From Candidatus Eiseniibacteriota bacterium (GTDB lineage Bacteria > Eisenbacteria > RBG-16-71-46): a stretch of DNA of 64,000 nt. Positions 36,607 through 45,968 of the stretch are shown here, in pieces. Each line of letters starts with the position of its first letter. The stretch's first letter is position 1. The position numbers and the translations under genes were made by a program. The notes beneath the pieces were generated by a model that was given only the letters and a program-made list of their open reading frames with translations, did not search any database and was not told where the DNA came from. Location: NCBI GenBank assembly GCA_963717505.1, contig OY970342.1, forward strand, positions 384,001-448,000, in the 5' to 3' direction.

Positions 36607-37083
36607 CTAGCCCGGGTACGGAGGAACCGCCAACGACCGAACGTGCTTCAACACGGCCTGGATCTCGGCCTCCGAGAGCACACTCTTCCACGCCGGCATG
36701 GCGCCCTTGCCCTCGTGAATCACCAGGAGCACCGCCTCGTCGGATAGCGCGTTCATGTAGGCGCCGTCCGTGTGATTCCGAGGCTTCGGATTGAGGCTCG
36801 CCGACGCGGGGCCATCTCCCTTGCCTTCCGGGCCATGACAAAGCGCACAGCGCTGCGAATAGATCTGGGCGCCATCGAGAACCACCGTCGTCGTACCGGT
36901 TTGGGTCGTCGTACCACCATCTGCGGGTTGGTTGGTCGCGTTGTCCGGCGCCGGCGTCGACTCGGACGAGCCACCGCCGCAACCAACCAGGACTGCGTGA
37001 CCGAGCGCCAGAGCGACGAACAACGCCGCCAGCGCGGACATCGGGCGGGCGCGAAACGCGCTTACAGCTGAAGGGGTTTTCAT
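36607..37083 (-). CDS. Lipoprotein monoheme cytochrome c
   Basis: Signal peptide with lipobox LVGC, Thr-rich linker, CALCH, GxGDG, distal Met in GKGAMPAW. Confidence 0.9.
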   Translation of the reverse strand: MKTPSAVSAFRARPMSALAALFVALALGHAVLVGCGGGSSESTPAPDNATNQPADGGTTTQTGTTTVVLDGAQIYSQRCALCHGPEGKGDGPASASLNPKPRNHTDGAYMNALSDEAVLLVIHEGKGAMPAWKSVLSEAEIQAVLKHVRSLAVPPYPG

Positions 37084-37090
37084 GGGCGGC

Positions 37091-37120
37091 AACATAGCAT
37101 CGCCGTCCGATGGGCTTCAA
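37091..37120 (-). promoter_or_regulatory. sigma70 extended -10 promoter, probably leaderless, for cytochrome c
   Basis: TTGAAG-N18-TATGTT with TGn extension, 7 nt before ATG 37083. Confidence 0.55.
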
Positions 37121-37143
37121 CAGGGCGGGGGTGCCCAAAATCG

Positions 37144-37180
37144 AAAAGGCAGCCGAGGAATCTCTTCTCGACTGCCTCTT
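37144..37180 (-). terminator. Intrinsic terminator closing the putative sigma54-dependent RNA
   Basis: AGGCAGTCGAGAA-gaga-TTCCTCGGCTGCCT followed by TTTCGATTTT. Confidence 0.75.
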
Positions 37181-37518
37181 CCCGAGAGTACAGGGAGTGA
37201 CCGGGATGAACCCCACTGTCCTCCCGGCTTCGTTGACCGGGCGTATTTAGTTTTGTGTGCAAACTACAAGCGAACGAACTGCTCCACTTCGAGAAGACTT
37301 TTCCTTGCTGCGCTCACCCCCCTTGGTTCACTTGCACCTAAGTGGGCCACGAGCCTCGGAGCTCATCGCTCCGACATCGAGCCGTCACGATCCGGGGGGG
37401 CCTGGACGATCGCTCCGCCGATGGAGGTGCCAACCTTGCGGTGCGAGGTCCAGGCTTCCGAGCCCCTCTTCCCCCTATGGGCAACCCCTGAACCGTGAAC
37501 TAAAACCCCGTATCCGGC
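37144..37518 (-). ncRNA. Putative ~375-nt sigma54-dependent structured ncRNA (unknown family)
   Basis: Bounded by sigma54 promoter and terminator; no credible ORF; multiple hairpins including a GCAA tetraloop. Confidence 0.55.
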
Positions 37519-37528
37519 GGATGACTAA

Positions 37529-37544
37529 AGCACCCGCCGTGCCG
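37529..37544 (-). promoter_or_regulatory. sigma54 -24/-12 promoter
   Basis: CGGCACG-GCGG-GTGCT: GG-N10-GC with CACG, close to TGGCACG-N4-TTGCW. Confidence 0.7.
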
Positions 37545-37583
37545 AGTCCTTCACGTCGTCCAAACAAAACTGCGTTCTCTGCA

Positions 37584-37596
37584 CAACTCGTTGATA
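37584..37596 (-). promoter_or_regulatory. IHF binding site
   Basis: TATCAA-CGAG-TTG, exact match to WATCAANNNNTTR, located between enhancer and sigma54 promoter. Confidence 0.65.
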
Positions 37597-37664
37597 AGCA
37601 ACGCTATGCGTGCCGTGGAGCCGATCACCGAATGCCGCCGATTACGAGGGGTCGAGTGTTTCGT

Positions 37665-37682
37665 TGTTACGGGGAGGTAACA
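37665..37682. promoter_or_regulatory. Putative upstream activator sequence (bEBP enhancer)
   Basis: Perfect dyad TGTTAC-N6-GTAACA ~155 bp upstream of predicted +1; extra TGTTAC half-site at 37747. Confidence 0.6.
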
Positions 37683-37851
37683 GCTTCGGGGGGCTCGTCC
37701 GAGGTGGCGGATGGCTTATCGATTGTGCGACAACGAATTGTAGGCTTGTTACCCGCGGGCAGGCGGAACCGCTCGAGGAAACGAAACCACGGAGCACCAC
37801 GAGCGTCAGGTTGTTGGCCGGAAAGAAGTCGCCGGTGGGGCCGCGAGCGCT

Positions 37852-40242
37852 CTAGTTCAGCTCGATGCCGAGCCGGCGCAGCCGCGCGTAGAGCGTCTTC
37901 CGGCTGACGCCCAGAATCTCGGCGGTGCGGCTCTTGTTGCCCGCGGCTTCGGCGAACGCGGAAAGAATGCGAGACCGCTCACTCTCGACCGGACGGCCGG
38001 TCGAATCGCCGGGCTCCAGGTATGCGAGCAAATCGAGGGCTTCGATCGCCTGATTGCCGGCGGACAGAGCCGCGACTCGCTTCATCACGTTCTCGAGTTC
38101 GCGAACGTTCCCGGGCCAGGCGTAGGACGCCAGAATGGCCTCGGCGCCCGACCCGAGGCGCGGCCCGTCGATGCCTCCGTAGAACGCGAGGAAATGCCGG
38201 GCGAGCGGGACGATATCCTCCCGCCTTTCGCGCAGTAACGGCACCTGGATTTCGATCTCGTTCAAACGGAAGAGAAGATCGCGGCGGAATGAAGCCTCGC
38301 CGCGCGAGCCACGTAGCTCGCGGTTGGTCGCCGAGATCACCCGCACGTCCGACCTGCGAACCTGCGTCTCGCCCAGCCGGATGTACTCGCCGCTCTCGAG
38401 GAAGCGGAGCAGCGTGACCTGGACGTCGTGCGGCAGCTCGCCCACTTCGTCCATGAACAGGGTGCCGCCATCGGCGGCTTCGACCAGCCCGATGCCTTCG
38501 GCGTGGGCGCCGGTGAATGCACCCTTCCGGTGTCCGAACAACTGCGAAAGGGCCAGGTCCGGTCGCAGTGCGCCGCAGTTCACCGCCAGGAACCGCCCGG
38601 TCTGCCGCGCCGAGAGCCCGTGGATCGTGCGCGCAATGAGCTCCTTCCCGGTGCCGGTTTCGCCGGTGATCAGGACGCTGAGCTCGGTGGCCGCGGCCCG
38701 CTGGGCCAAGGCTTCGACCCGGCGCATCCCCTGGGAACAGGCCACCATGCCGGGAGCACGATGGCGTCGGCCGTTGGTCGACACTGCCTCGATGGCTGGC
38801 GCTTCGCCCGCCTGAGCCTGGCGGCGCAATTCTTCTTCCGCCTGGTCCACCCAGTGGGTGGTGCCCAGGTCCGAGAACAATGCGACGGAGCGATAGAGCG
38901 CGCGCCGTCCCTCGTCGGTGTTCGGCGTGATGCGCCCCAGGTCGAGCAGGCTCCGGCCGAGTTCGAAACGCTCGTTGCACGCCGTCACCAGGTCGACGCA
39001 TCTGCGGGCGAAGTCCCGCGCCTCATCGCGACGGTCGCGGGCGCGGGCCAGCCAGGTACGCGCACGGAACGTCAGGGCATGCTCGAGCCGGTCTTCGATC
39101 CGATCCGCCAGACCCGCGGCACGCTCGCACGCGGCACCGGCCTCGTCGAGACGTCCGAGCTGAATCAGAACCTCGGCGCGCCGGCGCTCCAATTCGACGA
39201 CCAGATCACCTTCGCCGGCGATCCGCTCGGCCCGCGGCAGTGCTTCGTCGTAGCGGGCCAGTGCCGCCTCTGGCCGTCCGCGTTCGGCGTCGAGCTCGCC
39301 CAGGAACTCGAGCGCCAGGCACTCTTCCCGCTGCGCCGACTGCTCCCGTGAGCGACGCAGGGCGTCGAGCAGCCGCGTCTCGGACTCCACGAAGCGTTGG
39401 CGCAGCCGCGCGAGGTTGGCGAGTCCGATGTCGACCGCGGCCAGCCGGAGCTGGTCGCCGACCTGCTCGAACACCTGTCGCGCCTGCGAATAGCAGACTC
39501 CGGACTCGTTCCAGTCGCCGCGCTTCTGGTGAACGATTCCCAGGTGGAGCAGCGCGGTGCCGGTCTCGGCGAAACGTCCGGAGCGCCGCCGGATCTCGAG
39601 CGCACCGGTGAACTGCTGCACCGCCTGGTCCCATTCGCAGCGGTTCTTGTGGATCAGGCCGAGATTGCCGCGCACCACGGCACAGCTCAGCTCATCGCCG
39701 GCGCGCGTGTGGAATGCGAGGGCTTGCTCGTAGTTGGAACGGGCCGTGTCGAGGTCGCCTTCGCGATAGGCAACCCGACCCAGGAGGTTGAGCGCCTGCC
39801 CCATGAGCGTGAAGTCCGCTGCCTTCTGAGAACGCTCGAGGCCAGCCCGAGAAGCGTCGGCAGCCTCGGGTAGCCGGGACAGCCGGAACAGGGCCTCGGC
39901 CACCAGGAGGTGCAGGCGGCCGCGGGTTGCGAACGAGCCGATCGCCGGCTCGTCCCTCAAGGCCTCGCGACCATGCGCGAGTGCCCCTTGGGCGTTGCCC
40001 TGTGCGAGTCGGCAGGTAATCGCCTTGCAATCGAGGATCGCCCGGCGCGCAGCCGACAGCCCACGCGCCTCCGGCAACTGGAGCAGACGATCGATCGTCT
40101 CCAGGGCGGGCACGTAACTGTCCGCCTGCAGGTACAGATCGACCAGCATGCTCAAGTCCGCGACGCGCCCATCAGTGCGCGGCGCCTCGAACGCGAGCCG
40201 CTCCTCGAGCGATACAATGCGATCGTGGTCGTATCCCGGCAC
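37852..40242 (-). CDS. TPR-repeat sigma54-dependent Fis-family transcriptional activator (bEBP)
   Basis: ~480-aa N-terminal TPR array; GETGTGKE, LFGHRKGAFTGA, FMDE, WPGNVRELEN; C-terminal HTH GNKSRTAEILGVSRKTLY; GTG after GGAG. Confidence 0.93.
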   Translation of the reverse strand: MPGYDHDRIVSLEERLAFEAPRTDGRVADLSMLVDLYLQADSYVPALETIDRLLQLPEARGLSAARRAILDCKAITCRLAQGNAQGALAHGREALRDEPAIGSFATRGRLHLLVAEALFRLSRLPEAADASRAGLERSQKAADFTLMGQALNLLGRVAYREGDLDTARSNYEQALAFHTRAGDELSCAVVRGNLGLIHKNRCEWDQAVQQFTGALEIRRRSGRFAETGTALLHLGIVHQKRGDWNESGVCYSQARQVFEQVGDQLRLAAVDIGLANLARLRQRFVESETRLLDALRRSREQSAQREECLALEFLGELDAERGRPEAALARYDEALPRAERIAGEGDLVVELERRRAEVLIQLGRLDEAGAACERAAGLADRIEDRLEHALTFRARTWLARARDRRDEARDFARRCVDLVTACNERFELGRSLLDLGRITPNTDEGRRALYRSVALFSDLGTTHWVDQAEEELRRQAQAGEAPAIEAVSTNGRRHRAPGMVACSQGMRRVEALAQRAAATELSVLITGETGTGKELIARTIHGLSARQTGRFLAVNCGALRPDLALSQLFGHRKGAFTGAHAEGIGLVEAADGGTLFMDEVGELPHDVQVTLLRFLESGEYIRLGETQVRRSDVRVISATNRELRGSRGEASFRRDLLFRLNEIEIQVPLLRERREDIVPLARHFLAFYGGIDGPRLGSGAEAILASYAWPGNVRELENVMKRVAALSAGNQAIEALDLLAYLEPGDSTGRPVESERSRILSAFAEAAGNKSRTAEILGVSRKTLYARLRRLGIELN

Positions 40243-40283
40243 AACGGTCTCCGGTCAACGCTGACTACGTCGATGGATTCGGC

Positions 40284-40628
40284 TTACAGCTGGAGCCAAA
40301 GCCCTCGCTGCCACAGCCGAATCAGGTACAAACGCCACATCCCAAAGCTCTGAGCCAGCGAATCGTCACCCGCGATTCCCGAACCCAGATGCTGCGATCC
40401 GATCGCCACCCGCCCCTGGTTGACCTTGCTGGACTTGCCCGAGCCTTCGGGCTGGTCCGGATCACCCAAGCCGTTTCCGCCTCCCGCACCTGGATCGTCG
40501 TACGTGATCCCTTGGAACGGGTCGGCTGAAACGTGTGCGGGTGCCGCGGCACAGACAACCAGTGCCGCGAGCAGCGTCAGGATGATGGCTCCCCGCCTAT
40601 TCGTTTTGAACCAGGACATGAAACCCAT
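40284..40628 (-). CDS. Small secreted pre-peptide (GDPDxP motif, Trp-rich C-tail)
   Basis: Sec-type signal (KTNRR-hydrophobic-VSA|D), acidic Gly-rich GDPDQP core, tail MWRLYLIRLWQRGLWLQL; start at 40628 or 40619. Confidence 0.75.
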   Translation of the reverse strand: MGFMSWFKTNRRGAIILTLLAALVVCAAAPAHVSADPFQGITYDDPGAGGGNGLGDPDQPEGSGKSSKVNQGRVAIGSQHLGSGIAGDDSLAQSFGMWRLYLIRLWQRGLWLQL

Positions 40629-40778
40629 CCTCACTTCCCAGAACGACACCGCGGCCGACATTCAGCCGCATGGTCAAATGCGAATGCCCCTGCGACACGA
40701 CCGGCCTGCGGACGGAATACTGGATACGGGGTGACCGCAAGCCACCGGGTCTGAACAGGGGGGATCCGCTCGAAAACG

Positions 40779-43476: not shown

Positions 43477-44517
43477 TCAGGTGGCGGGGTCGACCTCGTG
43501 CGTGTCCTCGCGGACGCGGCGGTGGCGGCGGCGCCAGTCTTCGATCGCCAGGTCGAGCATGCGCGCGACCAGCTGATCGTAGGACATGCCGCACGCACGC
43601 GCCGCCATCGGCACCAGACTGGTCGGGGTCATGCCGGGAACCGTATTGACTTCCAGACACCACGGGGCGCCCGCCGGATCGAGCCGGAAGTCCGTGCGCG
43701 AGACCCCGCGGCATCCGAGCACGCGCGACGCGCGCAGGCCCAGTTCGCGGACCCGCTCGGCGAGTGCCGCCGGCAGATCCGCCGGACAGAAGTACTCGCT
43801 CTTGCCCGCGGTGTACTTCGACTCGTAGTCGTAGTGGCCGCCCTGCGGCCGGATCTCGACGATCGGCAGCGCCTCGTCACCCAGAACCGCGACCGTCAGC
43901 TCGCGGCCCGGGATGTACTGCTCGATCAGGACCTCGGGGCCGTGCTCGAAAGCCAGATCCAGGGCTTCGGCCAGATCGTCGGCGCGGCTGACGATGGTCA
44001 ATCCGACGGTCGAGCCTTCGGCGTTCGGCTTGACCACGAGCGGGTAGCCCCCCAGCGCCGTGGCATCGACCAACGTGTCGCCGGCGCGCACCAGGCGCCA
44101 CCGAGGCGTCGGGACGCCCTCGCGTTCGAAGACGCGCTTGGCCATCGCTTTGTCCATGGCCAGAGCACTCGCGAGCACGCCCGAGCCGGTGTACGGACGG
44201 CCGGCGAGCTCGAGCAGGGCCTGGACGGTGCCGTCCTCCCCCGCGCCACCGTGCAACGCGACGAATACGACGTCGGCCTCGCCGAGCGCCGGCGCTTCGG
44301 CCAGCGCGGCCGCCGAGCGCTCGGGCAGGCGGCGCACGGCTTCGGCGGGCAGCGCGGCCTTGGCTTCGTCGCCCGGCGGCAGCAGGCGGCCATTCGCCGC
44401 ATCGATCGCCAGCACCTCGTGGCCGAGATGTTTGAGCGCCTGAACCACGCCCTGGCCGGTTCGGAGCGAGATCTCGCGCTCGGCCGATCGGCCACCCATG
44501 AGGACTGCGACTTTCAT
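43477..44517 (-). CDS. ddl: D-alanine--D-alanine ligase
   Basis: GGRSAEREIS, LHGGAGEDG, YDYESKY, LEVNTVPGMT. Confidence 0.96.
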   Translation of the reverse strand: MKVAVLMGGRSAEREISLRTGQGVVQALKHLGHEVLAIDAANGRLLPPGDEAKAALPAEAVRRLPERSAAALAEAPALGEADVVFVALHGGAGEDGTVQALLELAGRPYTGSGVLASALAMDKAMAKRVFEREGVPTPRWRLVRAGDTLVDATALGGYPLVVKPNAEGSTVGLTIVSRADDLAEALDLAFEHGPEVLIEQYIPGRELTVAVLGDEALPIVEIRPQGGHYDYESKYTAGKSEYFCPADLPAALAERVRELGLRASRVLGCRGVSRTDFRLDPAGAPWCLEVNTVPGMTPTSLVPMAARACGMSYDQLVARMLDLAIEDWRRRHRRVREDTHEVDPAT

Positions 44518-45968
44518 CGAGGCCTTTCGGTTGACGGCGACCGCGCGGCCGCAGCGCGCAATCGCGCGACGCAGCGGTCACGACCCAGCGCTTCGGCGAT
44601 TCGCGGCAACTCGGGTCCATGCGTGCGCCCGGTCAACGCCGCGCGCACCGGCTGGTGGAGTTCGCGGCCTTTGACGCCCAGTCGCGCGCCGGTTTCGTGA
44701 AGGGCGGATTTAATCCGCTCGGGACTCCACTCCGCAAGCGAGCCGAGGGCCTCGGCCCATGCCGCGCAGACCTCGGGCGCGCGAGCGGCCTCGAGGCTCG
44801 CGCGCGCTTCGGGCTCGAACGCGGGCGGATCGGTCATGTAGGGCTCGAGCTCGCGATCCAACTCCGCCAGGGTGGTCACGTTGCCCCGCACCAGCTCGAG
44901 CCAACGGCGCACCTCCTCGGGAGAGCGGCCCTGGAGCCCGGCCGGAAGCAGCTCGCGGCTCCAGCGTTCCAGCTCCTCGCCGCTCGCGTGATGCAGGTAG
45001 TGGGCGTTGACCCAGCGCAGCTTGTCGGGATCGAACACCGAGCCGCTGGCGCCGACACGATCGAGGGTGAACGCCTCGAGCAACTCGGTGCGCGTGAGGA
45101 TTTCGCGGTCGTCCCCCGGATGGAACCCGAGCAGGGCCAGATAACTGAGCAGCGCTTCCGGAACGAACCCATTGCGCCGGTAGTCCCCGACCGCGACCGC
45201 GGCCTCGCCCTCGCGCTTGCTCATCTTGCTGCGGTCGCGGTTGAGGATCAACGGCACGTGCGCATAGGTCGGAGGCGTTTCGCCCATGGCCTCGAGCAGC
45301 ATGAGCTGCCGTGGCGTGTTCGGGAGGTGCTCCTCGGCGCGGATCACGTGGCTGATGCGCATCGCGGCGTCGTCCACGGCGCACGCGAAGTTGTACGTCG
45401 GCAGCCCGTTCGAGCGCAGGAGGACGAAGTCCCCGACCATGCCCGCCGGGAAGCGAACTTCGCCGCGAACCCGATCCTCGAGCACCCAGTCGCGGTCGGG
45501 CACCGTGAATCGAATGCTCGCCGGGCCGCCGGCCCCGCGCGCAGCGCGCTCGGCGGCCGAAAGCGCGCGACAGCGGCCGTCGTAGTGCGGCGGCCGGCCG
45601 GCCGCGAGGGCGGCGCGCCGGCGTGCCTCGAGTTCCTCATCGGTGCAGAAGCAGGGATAGGCCCGCCCGCGGCCGACCAGATCCTCGGCGCGCGCGCGAT
45701 AGAGATCGAGTCGCTCGCTCTGCCGGTAGGGCCCATAGGGACCGCCGCGATCCGGGCCCTCGTCCCATTCGAGGCCGAGCCAGCGCAGGTCGTCGAGCAC
45801 CCCCGACTCGCTCTCGGCGCTCGAGCGAGCGAGGTCGGTGTCCTCGACCCGGATCACGAACACGCCGCCGCTCTGGCGCGCGAACAGCCAGTTGAAGTAG
45901 GCGGTGCGGGCGCCCCCCACGTGCAGCCATCCGGTCGGGCTGGGCGCGAAGCGAACACGAACGCTCAT
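44514..45968 (-). CDS. gltX: Glutamate--tRNA ligase
   Basis: RFAPSPTG, HVGG, YPCFC, KMSKR, anticodon-binding domain present. Confidence 0.97.
   Translation of the reverse strand: MSVRVRFAPSPTGWLHVGGARTAYFNWLFARQSGGVFVIRVEDTDLARSSAESESGVLDDLRWLGLEWDEGPDRGGPYGPYRQSERLDLYRARAEDLVGRGRAYPCFCTDEELEARRRAALAAGRPPHYDGRCRALSAAERAARGAGGPASIRFTVPDRDWVLEDRVRGEVRFPAGMVGDFVLLRSNGLPTYNFACAVDDAAMRISHVIRAEEHLPNTPRQLMLLEAMGETPPTYAHVPLILNRDRSKMSKREGEAAVAVGDYRRNGFVPEALLSYLALLGFHPGDDREILTRTELLEAFTLDRVGASGSVFDPDKLRWVNAHYLHHASGEELERWSRELLPAGLQGRSPEEVRRWLELVRGNVTTLAELDRELEPYMTDPPAFEPEARASLEAARAPEVCAAWAEALGSLAEWSPERIKSALHETGARLGVKGRELHQPVRAALTGRTHGPELPRIAEALGRDRCVARLRAAAARSPSTERPR

Follow-up and report, generated by a model that had tools for sequence, protein, structure and literature searches.

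A conserved structured RNA gene with a predicted sigma-54 promoter downstream of an enhancer-binding protein gene in Candidatus Eisenbacteria

A stretch of 64,000 nt from a Candidatus Eisenbacteria genome (GenBank assembly GCA_963717505.1, contig OY970342.1, positions 384,001 to 448,000), referred to here as the window, contains a gene of about 380 nt for a structured non-coding RNA directly downstream of a gene encoding a bacterial enhancer-binding protein (bEBP) with tetratricopeptide repeats (TPR). All coordinates are positions in the window, and the RNA gene is read on the minus strand. Along this strand, a GG-N10-GC promoter is followed by about 380 nt of sequence, a 15-bp hairpin and a U tract, which places the predicted gene at 37137..37518. 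A first-pass annotation, made from the letters of the sequence alone, had placed the element at 37144..37518 and had taken it for a structured non-coding RNA; its coordinates and strand are correct, the element running from about 37518 down to 37137. The predicted minimum free energy of the 379-nt RNA from 37518 to 37140 is -169.4 kcal/mol, compared with -146.0 +/- 5.8 for dinucleotide shuffles (z -4.06; 0 of 100 shuffles as low). The element proved genuine on comparison with relatives: it is conserved, it covaries, it has its own predicted promoter and terminator, and it matches no Rfam family. We are highly confident that it is a real non-coding RNA gene driven by sigma-54 and the bEBP.

The predicted sigma-54 promoter, cGGCACGgcggGTGCT, lies at 37529..37544 on the minus strand, with the -24 GG at 37543-37542 and the -12 GC at 37531-37530. 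Its position puts the predicted transcription start near 37518, as had been proposed in the first-pass annotation. At the other end, a putative intrinsic terminator (37137..37181, minus strand) consists of a 15-bp hairpin, GAAGAGGCAGUCGAG...CUCGGCUGCCUUUUC, followed by UUUUCGAUUUU; the RNA would end in the U tract at 37147-37137. A consensus terminator scan did not call the 37181-37137 hairpin, in our reading because its 9-nt loop exceeds the limit of 8 used by the scan.

The bEBP gene (37852..40242, minus strand) encodes a protein of 796 amino acids, in which Pfam recognizes TPR repeats, a sigma-54 AAA+ domain, a lid domain and a Fis-type helix-turn-helix. The repeats are N-terminal, and the translation contains the Walker A sequence GETGTGKE and the motif GAFTGA; no NCBIfam equivalog matched it at cut-off. 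Upstream of the RNA promoter are an enhancer-like dyad, TGTTACC-N5-GTAACAACG (37662..37682, minus strand), and a further half-site, GGGTAACAAG (37754-37745, minus strand). The GTTAC/GTAAC pentamers of these sites are concentrated around -137/-125 and -210/-198 relative to the promoter, and at least two such pentamers occur in the 260 nt upstream in 57 of 75 unique loci. Only two GTTAC-N5-9-GTAAC dyads occur in the 4.16-Mb genome, and of these only the one in the window has a sigma-54-like promoter no more than 300 nt away. The genome also encodes rpoN. The promoter, the enhancer sites, the adjacent GAFTGA-containing bEBP and the rpoN gene, which is frameshifted in the assembly, are the features by which a regulatory RNA under sigma-54/bEBP control is recognized.

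Homologues were collected by three routes. A BLAST search with 37620-37100 as the query found matches in 30 of 41 related genomes, a tally that includes the unpublished genome G026. Beyond the bacterium's own genome, good matches were restricted to positions 367-449 of the query (window 37254-37172), where identity across genera was 78-94%. A 19-mer from the conserved core, scanned over one genome per prokaryote species, returned 73 loci, of which 49 were labelled Candidatus Eisenbacteria, 19 'bacterium' or 'uncultured bacterium', and 5 other taxa; one of these five, L053, was rejected as a chance match within a coding region. Finally, R1, a covariance model of the 3' core, was used to search a sample of 151 genomes of the phylum, again counting G026. 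R1 matched in 58 genomes belonging to two families only, namely 51 of 59 in family f1 plus the genome studied here, and 6 of 6 in family f3. There were no matches in the 3 genomes of family f2, which belongs to the same order, or in the 82 genomes of the other 14 families, these zeros meaning not found in the genomes searched rather than absent. The RNA is single-copy in each of the 58 genomes except G012, which has two. In G012, the whole module of bEBP gene and RNA is present twice (L120 and L121, on contigs C3 and C6), and the L121 copy may be frameshifted or decaying, its bEBP frame being open for just 469 amino acids from the first start.

The genetic organization of the window recurs almost throughout this collection of 93 loci (75 unique sequences). 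In 92 of the 93, the RNA is preceded by a gene for a bEBP homologue, the exception being L053. All 91 other homologous loci have the promoter pattern TGG[CT]A[CT]-N5-NTGC at a distance of 180-454 nt upstream of the 19-mer; the copy in the window begins with C, and the motif is thus counted in 92 homologous loci. A terminator pattern was matched in 69 of the 75 unique homologues. Of the remaining six, five have a hairpin and a U-rich tract when inspected by eye, and the sequence of the last, L080, ends too early to tell. The layout of bEBP gene, TGGCAYG-N4-NTGC promoter, RNA and terminator is therefore common to 92 of the 93 loci, nearly all of them labelled Candidatus Eisenbacteria.

The RNA is 300-520 nt long in relatives, and conserved blocks alternate with variable hairpins in the full-length alignment. 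On the minus strand of the window, the 5' end is formed by block B1, CCGGAUACGGGG (37506..37517; alignment consensus CGGAUACGGG), which occurs in both size classes of the RNA. Block B2, GGGGA in the full-length alignment, lies in a hairpin loop. It is followed by helix H3 (37400..37455), which covaries and is composed of the outer strands GCCUGGAC/GUCCAGGC and the inner strands CGCACCGC/GCGGAGCG. Its apical loop holds block B3, GGCACCUCCAUCGG (37431-37418; GCACCUCCAUC in the alignment), which resembles an anti-Shine-Dalgarno sequence. The core of B3, GCACCUCC, is invariant in 50 aligned sequences and, in our reading, is present in 8 of 13 further long-form sequences that the first search pattern had missed. 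Block B4, GGCUCGUGGCC (37345..37355; consensus GGGCUCGUACCC), is a small hairpin with the loop CUCGUA, and we read its stem as altered yet still complementary in three loci (L082, L069, L012). Block B5, AAGGGGGGUGAGCGC (37310..37324; consensus GAAAGGGGUGAGAG, with AAGGAGGUGA in some members), is Shine-Dalgarno-like, and block B6 occupies 37267..37290 (consensus GGUGAGUAGUGGUUCGCAG, tabulated from the full-length alignment as GGUGAGUAGUGGUUCGC). The 3' module then consists of an A-rich linker (37259-37248), the 20-mer AAUACGCCCGGUCAACGAAG (37247-37228), a hairpin (37182..37227) formed by CCGGGAG-GACAGUGGGG and CUCCCUGUAC-UCUCGG, and the terminator. The 13-nt loop of this hairpin, UUCAUCCCGGUCA (37210-37198), holds a second CCCGGUC.

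The two ends of the RNA differ in how consistently they are kept. In 9 unique loci, with a bEBP sharing about 50% identity with that of the window, the RNA has a short form that retains B1, B5, B6 and the 3' module and lacks the B2-B4 domain; H3 is also missing from L008, L018 and L068. A covariance model of the B2/B3 domain (R2) matched in 60 of the 75 unique loci at E <= 0.001. The 20-mer comprises 20 invariant columns in 73 sequences. For the 73 loci of the scan this invariance is circular, because they were picked by an exact match to the 19-mer. Independently of the scan, the 19-mer is exact in 20 of 20 loci derived from BLAST and in 20 of 20 regions derived from covariance-model matches, two of which are from family f3.

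Covariation, which the first-pass annotation had proposed to look for, was detected in both parts of the molecule. In the 3' hairpin (73 sequences), 88.9% of alignment cells are paired, compared with 43-62% when the partners are slid. Compensatory cells number 107, compared with 17.3 for shuffles, none of which reaches the observed count in 500; double changes occur in 13 of 16 pairs, and RNAalifold independently recovers the same helix. For the 5' domain, a plain MAFFT alignment of 50 sequences gave 65.2% paired cells against 38-46% slid, and 217 compensatory cells against 132 in shuffles (0 of 500 as high). An alignment of 60 sequences fitted to the model, and hence biased towards its own structure, gave 68.6% against 39-47%, and 266 compensatory cells against 154 (0 of 500 as high). 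The structure used for the 5' domain was that of a single member, L006. Within the 60-sequence alignment, pairing reached 81.8% in the inner part of H3, 75.4% in its outer part and 65.6% in helix H2, with double changes in 17 of 18 pairs of H3. The variants among homologues give no evidence either way on pairing of B5 with B3 or with a strand of the 3' hairpin.

These helices only partly coincide with the six pairings listed in the first-pass annotation. All six are present in the window sequence: GCCTGGAC (37455-37448) with GTCCAGGC (37407-37400), TCGGAGC (37374-37368) with GCTCCGA (37362-37356) and CACTT (37344-37340) with AAGTG (37333-37329), all on the minus strand, as well as CCCGG/CCGGG, GGTTCA/TGAACC and TTTAGTT/AACTAAA. 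However, some of them are not the ones kept in homologues. The sequence CCGGGAG, listed with an upstream CCCGG, pairs in homologues with CUCUCGG. In place of the ACC-GCAA-GGT hairpin, relatives have a longer inner stem of H3 that leaves GCACCUCC in the apical loop. The TTTAGTT/AACTAAA closure was found in 1 of 10 other folded homologues (L007).

The RNA does not correspond to a catalogued family. As suggested in the first-pass annotation, the region was compared with Rfam, and no family reached its gathering score. Across 37000-37900, no bacterial family matched at E <= 10, and the only matches were two eukaryotic families with E-values of 1.9 and 7.8. The RNA region of 8 homologous loci likewise yielded no bacterial family at E <= 1; in those loci the search returned tRNAs, four sub-threshold tRNA-antisense matches, one chance microRNA match and one sub-threshold match to a small RNA (sRNA) family, over downstream tRNA genes. 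A literature search on Eisenbacteria, at the level of titles and abstracts, found no paper on non-coding RNA in the phylum among the records listed, and we know of nothing reported on RNA regulation in it. The RNA is a previously uncatalogued structured family from an uncultured lineage, with what appears from sequence to be a regulatory design of a known kind.

We consider the chances about even that the RNA is a lineage-specific regulator, base-pairing included, and the output of a dedicated bEBP/sigma-54 signalling module. In the mechanism proposed, the TPR-containing bEBP encoded just upstream would bind the TGTTAC...GTAACA dyads and activate sigma-54 RNA polymerase at the GG-N10-GC promoter. 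The product would be an RNA of about 380 nt ending at the intrinsic terminator, in which a 5' body that varies precedes a 3' module that is nearly invariant. Part of the 5' body is an accessory domain with the helix that displays GCACCUCC in its loop; another part is the Shine-Dalgarno-like block. The 3' module (A-rich linker, 20-mer AAUACGCCCGGUCAACGAAG, covarying hairpin with the second CCCGGUC in its loop, and terminator) would be the effector and base-pair with mRNAs, the 20-mer being the proposed seed. In the larger family (f1), this module may pair with the Shine-Dalgarno and start region of the activator mRNA and repress its translation, giving a negative feedback like that of Qrr on luxO. 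That the RNA acts mainly by base-pairing in trans is a proposition we regard as evenly balanced; feedback on the bEBP mRNA is put forward tentatively, at somewhat less than even chances. Among the options raised in the first-pass annotation, a regulatory base-pairing role is the one best supported by the sequence comparisons.

The proposed feedback is based on complementarity between the seed and the bEBP leader. A candidate target site, GCGUUGACCGGAG, lies at 40249..40261 on the minus strand, -19 to -8 from the GUG start codon at 40242, and overlaps the GGAG. Here CGUUGACCGG in the leader is complementary over 10 bp to CCGGUCAACG of the 20-mer, and the duplex has a predicted energy of -19.9 kcal/mol, equalled by 1% of shuffled leaders. 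We extracted bEBP start regions from 20 further places, chosen by sufficient contig span. Leaders of family f1 follow the pattern (U)GACCGGAG-N7-GGC-GUG, with variable UUCGUUGA-like stretches upstream, and the GGCGUG at the start codon is often complementary to UACGCC of the 20-mer. Over 19 f1 leaders, the mean duplex energy is -18.29 kcal/mol, compared with -12.52 +/- 1.59 for 500 shuffled seeds, 4 of which reach the observed mean, and with -14.91 +/- 2.17 for 152 windows inside the same bEBP genes. For 11 of the 19 leaders, no more than 2% of shuffled leaders give an equally favourable energy. The start regions of 38 cytochrome c genes, which served as a control and as a candidate target in their own right, showed no signal above shuffles (-13.91 vs -13.16 +/- 1.26; 81 of 300 as good) and were rejected as a target. 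Comparison of the window (40200-40230) with L118-L133 shows a second GACCGG at codons 4-7 of the bEBP gene (Asp-Arg) in about half of the f1 loci; this could be a second site, for the second CCCGGUC of the RNA, or merely reflect conserved Asp-Arg codons.

Several observations weigh against a base-pairing regulator that controls its own activator. The start and the 3' end of the RNA are predictions from the promoter and terminator sequences. Because the 19 leaders share ancestry, the figure of 4 in 500 is not to be taken as a real probability. Within its own genome, the bEBP start region ranks 705th of 6264 start regions for seed pairing, a set that is crude because it was built with a filter on third-position GC content (GC3) and up to 8 starts per open reading frame (ORF). 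Two family-f3 loci examined showed no complementarity (z about 0) although their 20-mer is identical, and feedback therefore cannot explain the invariance of the 20-mer. A genome scan for seed-complementary sites yielded no convincing further target: 13-mer sites numbered 5, one being the gene's own antisense, against a shuffled mean of 1.0 and maximum of 4, and site counts were within or near the range of shuffled seeds, with the sites lying inside ORFs. The size and structure of the RNA are beyond the needs of a simple base-pairing sRNA, and P2, the helix closing the 5' domain, is only 48-51% paired in the L006 register (51.1% in the 60-sequence alignment). A six-frame search of the genome, one contig with 86.7% marker completeness, found no Hfq domain. 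The rpoN gene (C1:3872700-3874400) contains at least three frame switches within about 600 nt. Frameshifts of this kind in a one-contig genome of 86.7% marker completeness suggest indel errors in the assembly, which we attribute to long reads, the alternative being a broken or dead rpoN. Given these observations, feedback on the bEBP, if it is real, would account for only part of the function of the RNA.

A 13-nt match to the seed complement, GCGUUGACCGGGC, is present at 44643 on the minus strand, near the 3' end of gltX (44514-45968), the Glu-tRNA synthetase gene. It is 7 kb from the RNA gene and is probably a chance match.

An unlikely alternative is that the RNA is a decoy or sponge for a protein or the ribosome, titrating 30S subunits, CsrA or another RNA-binding protein rather than specific mRNAs. 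B5 would then mimic a Shine-Dalgarno sequence, the GCACCUCC in the loop of H3 would mimic the 16S anti-Shine-Dalgarno, and the two CCCGGUC copies would possibly be a paired protein site. B5 comes close to a perfect Shine-Dalgarno sequence, the 16S 3' end reading GGAUCACCUCCUUUCU, and it is kept in both size classes with no conserved start codon behind it among the homologues compared. The best 16S partner of its consensus is the 3' end ...GGAUCACCUCCUUUC (-19.4 vs -16.5 +/- 1.8 kcal/mol for shuffles), although this energy is within reach of shuffles (minimum -21.5). The invariance of the GCACCUCC core in the apical loop of a covarying helix, the presence of CsrA in the genome, and a size and multi-helix build like those of protein-binding RNAs also fit. 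Against this, H3 is absent from the short form and from L008, L018 and L068 and is thus not essential, and no candidate protein partner was identified. Nor is there support for a sponge in the style of CsrB or CrcZ, as suggested in the first-pass annotation, which had noted 'many GGA triplets'. GGA occurs 12 times in the window RNA against 10.7 +/- 2.0 expected, and over 69 homologues the mean is 10.2 vs 10.7 expected from dinucleotide shuffles (mean z -0.23). The sequence and the alignment contain just one A-rich run in our reading, no Hfq was found in the genome, and a CsrB-like sponge was rejected on the GGA count.

Comparisons of the conserved blocks with rRNA were mostly within expectation, 15 of 16 block/rRNA pairs with 16S or 23S falling within the shuffle range. 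The exception was the B6 consensus against 23S rRNA (-27.3; shuffle minimum -26.7), a predicted duplex that requires an internal loop of 14 nt. For the 20-mer, 23S rRNA offers a match of 13 bp (-23.3 vs -19.8 +/- 2.0; shuffle minimum -24.6). B5 and the H3 loop might be partners of one another; other possible partners for them are B2, ribosomes and the G-rich ribosome-binding sites that the genome seems to use. It is quite unlikely, in our estimate, that the two ideas combine, such that a dedicated TPR-bEBP/sigma-54 module has the RNA as its only output and this RNA is a multi-domain riboregulator whose Shine-Dalgarno and anti-Shine-Dalgarno mimics act on ribosomes or global translation initiation, while the invariant 3' module also closes the feedback loop on the activator.

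We regard it as improbable that the RNA is a structured RNA of another type, such as a ribozyme, scaffold or ligand sensor, in which the invariant nucleotides form a tertiary core instead of a seed. Eight conserved blocks set apart by variable, covarying hairpins would suit such a molecule, and twenty invariant nucleotides are unusual for an sRNA. Possible long-range pairs can also be drawn by eye between blocks (B1 UACGGG with the B4 loop CUCGUA, B1 GAU-A-CGGG with CCCGGUC, B2 GGGGG with B3 CCUCC), but they are beyond covariation testing as both sides are invariant. The 5' domain is, however, dispensable in part of the family, and a sigma-54/bEBP switch suits a regulator better than a housekeeping catalyst. 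Identity with a housekeeping RNA was rejected, as transfer-messenger RNA (tmRNA; 1691166, 178.8 bits), RNase P RNA (3038418, 275.1 bits) and 6S RNA (3533382, 66.9 bits) are all encoded elsewhere in the genome.

It is very unlikely that the RNA is a cis-acting leader or attenuator of the downstream gene, with the terminator as a regulated stop. This gene, for a lipoprotein-type cytochrome c (36607..37095, minus strand; Pfam and NCBIfam), lies outside the RNA and begins about 45 nt after the U tract, and a cytochrome c gene is found downstream on the same strand in 47 of 93 loci. Yet the RNA is kept without it in L002, L010, L026, L036, L082 and L092, in which no gene-like ORF of at least 70 amino acids comes before tuf, at about +1.0 to +1.5 kb; tRNA genes lie downstream of the RNA in L010. 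The terminator is also strong and has a full U tract. Moreover, TGCTA-type motifs precede the cytochrome c start in most of 12 relatives inspected; we read them as extended -10 boxes, so that the cytochrome c gene probably has its own promoter. In the window, the corresponding extended -10-like motif, TGCTATGTT (37083-37105, minus strand), ends 7-8 nt before an ATG at 37083. The cytochrome c mRNA may be independently transcribed and leaderless or nearly so, with its start at 37083 rather than 37095, judging by this motif.

The last alternative, a small-protein gene or a dual-function RNA encoding for example MSAARKSLLEVEQFVRL, as the first-pass annotation had entertained, has a negligible probability, since no ORF is conserved among the homologues. 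A GUG does occur inside the Shine-Dalgarno-like block, and the earlier statement that the RNA holds only tiny ORFs overlooked two TTG-started ones on the minus strand, of 48 amino acids (37338-37484) and 60 amino acids (37080-37262); neither is conserved. The frame from the B5 GUG, which gives MSAARKSLLEVEQFVRL in the window, closes after anything from 4 to more than 60 codons in 54 homologues, and 15 of 69 lack the motif pattern that defines this start, some of them (L029, L042) having no start codon there. Homologues differ in the length of their longest closed sense ORF, with extremes of 21 and 127 codons. Shared peptides arise only from reading the invariant 20-mer, in two different frames and in at most 15 of 69 RNAs. 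The ORF comparison gave no conserved coding signal, and the unconserved ORFs and unenriched GGA together rule against both the dual-function and the CsrB-like readings.

A regulatory RNA expressed from a bEBP/sigma-54 module, the reading we prefer, has parallels in other phyla. CrcZ of Pseudomonas is roughly 400 nt long, similar to the Eisenbacteria RNA, and has several A-rich Hfq/Crc-binding motifs of the form AAnAAnAA. The Eisenbacteria RNA differs in having one A-rich run, no CrcZ match in Rfam and no Hfq found in its genome, and its activator carries TPR repeats in place of the receiver domain of CbrB. The likeness to CrcZ drawn in the first-pass annotation is nevertheless apt for gene layout. 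In both cases the RNA gene adjoins the gene of a sigma-54 activator and has a GG-N10-GC promoter, and the half-sites TGTTAC and GTAACA are the hexamers reported as CbrB subsites in Pseudomonas putida (PMC6296734).

Similarly, LuxO is described as a sigma-54 bEBP with small RNA as its main output (PMC4878744), and another study describes repression of luxO by the Qrr sRNAs as a negative feedback loop in Vibrio (PMC3262071). The Eisenbacteria activator likewise appears from its genetic context to be dedicated to the RNA gene, and feedback on its mRNA is proposed. Qrr RNAs are about 100 nt long and Hfq-dependent, in contrast to the Eisenbacteria RNA, which is about 380 nt long with an extra structured domain and comes from a genome in which no Hfq was found. 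There is also no sequence or structural homology and no Rfam match to Qrr, and the Eisenbacteria RNA is single-copy except in G012. CsrB/RsmZ-type sponges of CsrA share the multi-hairpin build over several hundred nt and the company of a csrA-encoding genome, but their defining excess of GGA is missing here. In Myxococcus, the sRNA gene pxr is located in the intergenic region just downstream of nla19, a sigma-54-dependent regulator gene, has its own sigma-54 promoter, encodes a 108-nt RNA with several stem-loops and is restricted to one lineage (PMC5568312). Pxr has no homology to the Eisenbacteria RNA and is from a different phylum, and Nla19 is a response regulator rather than a TPR protein.

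Candidatus Eisenbacteria are a common but uncultured phylum. The locus provides a complete regulatory module that can be recognized by sequence, comprising a sensor/activator, an enhancer, a sigma-54 promoter, a structured RNA and a possible feedback site, and it is amenable to rebuilding in a laboratory host. It would be an independent example, from a distant phylum, of a sigma-54 activator working mainly via an adjacent RNA gene, as in CbrB/CrcZ, LuxO/Qrr and Nla19/Pxr. The covariance models R1 and R2 could seed a new RNA family entry.

The wider neighbourhood consists of housekeeping genes and gives no hint of the function of the RNA. Beyond the cytochrome c gene are genes for tRNA-Thr, tRNA-Tyr, tRNA-Gly, tRNA-Thr, tuf and tRNA-Trp, followed by nusG, rplK, rplA and rplJ; upstream of the bEBP gene are cysS, an M42 peptidase gene, ddl, gltX, ispD and radA. 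An ORF of 125 amino acids (40284-40661, minus strand) also lies just upstream of the bEBP gene. Its N terminus resembles a signal peptide, its middle is rich in Gly, Asp and Pro, and its C terminus is hydrophobic and rich in Trp and Leu. Neither Pfam nor NCBIfam recognizes it, and 6 of 20 other loci show weak conservation at this position; its product may be a partner of the TPR sensor. Elsewhere in the genome, the 23S rRNA match (C1:4155724-4159701) spans 3978 nt against a model of 2925 positions, and the gene is probably interrupted by about 1 kb of inserted or intervening sequence.

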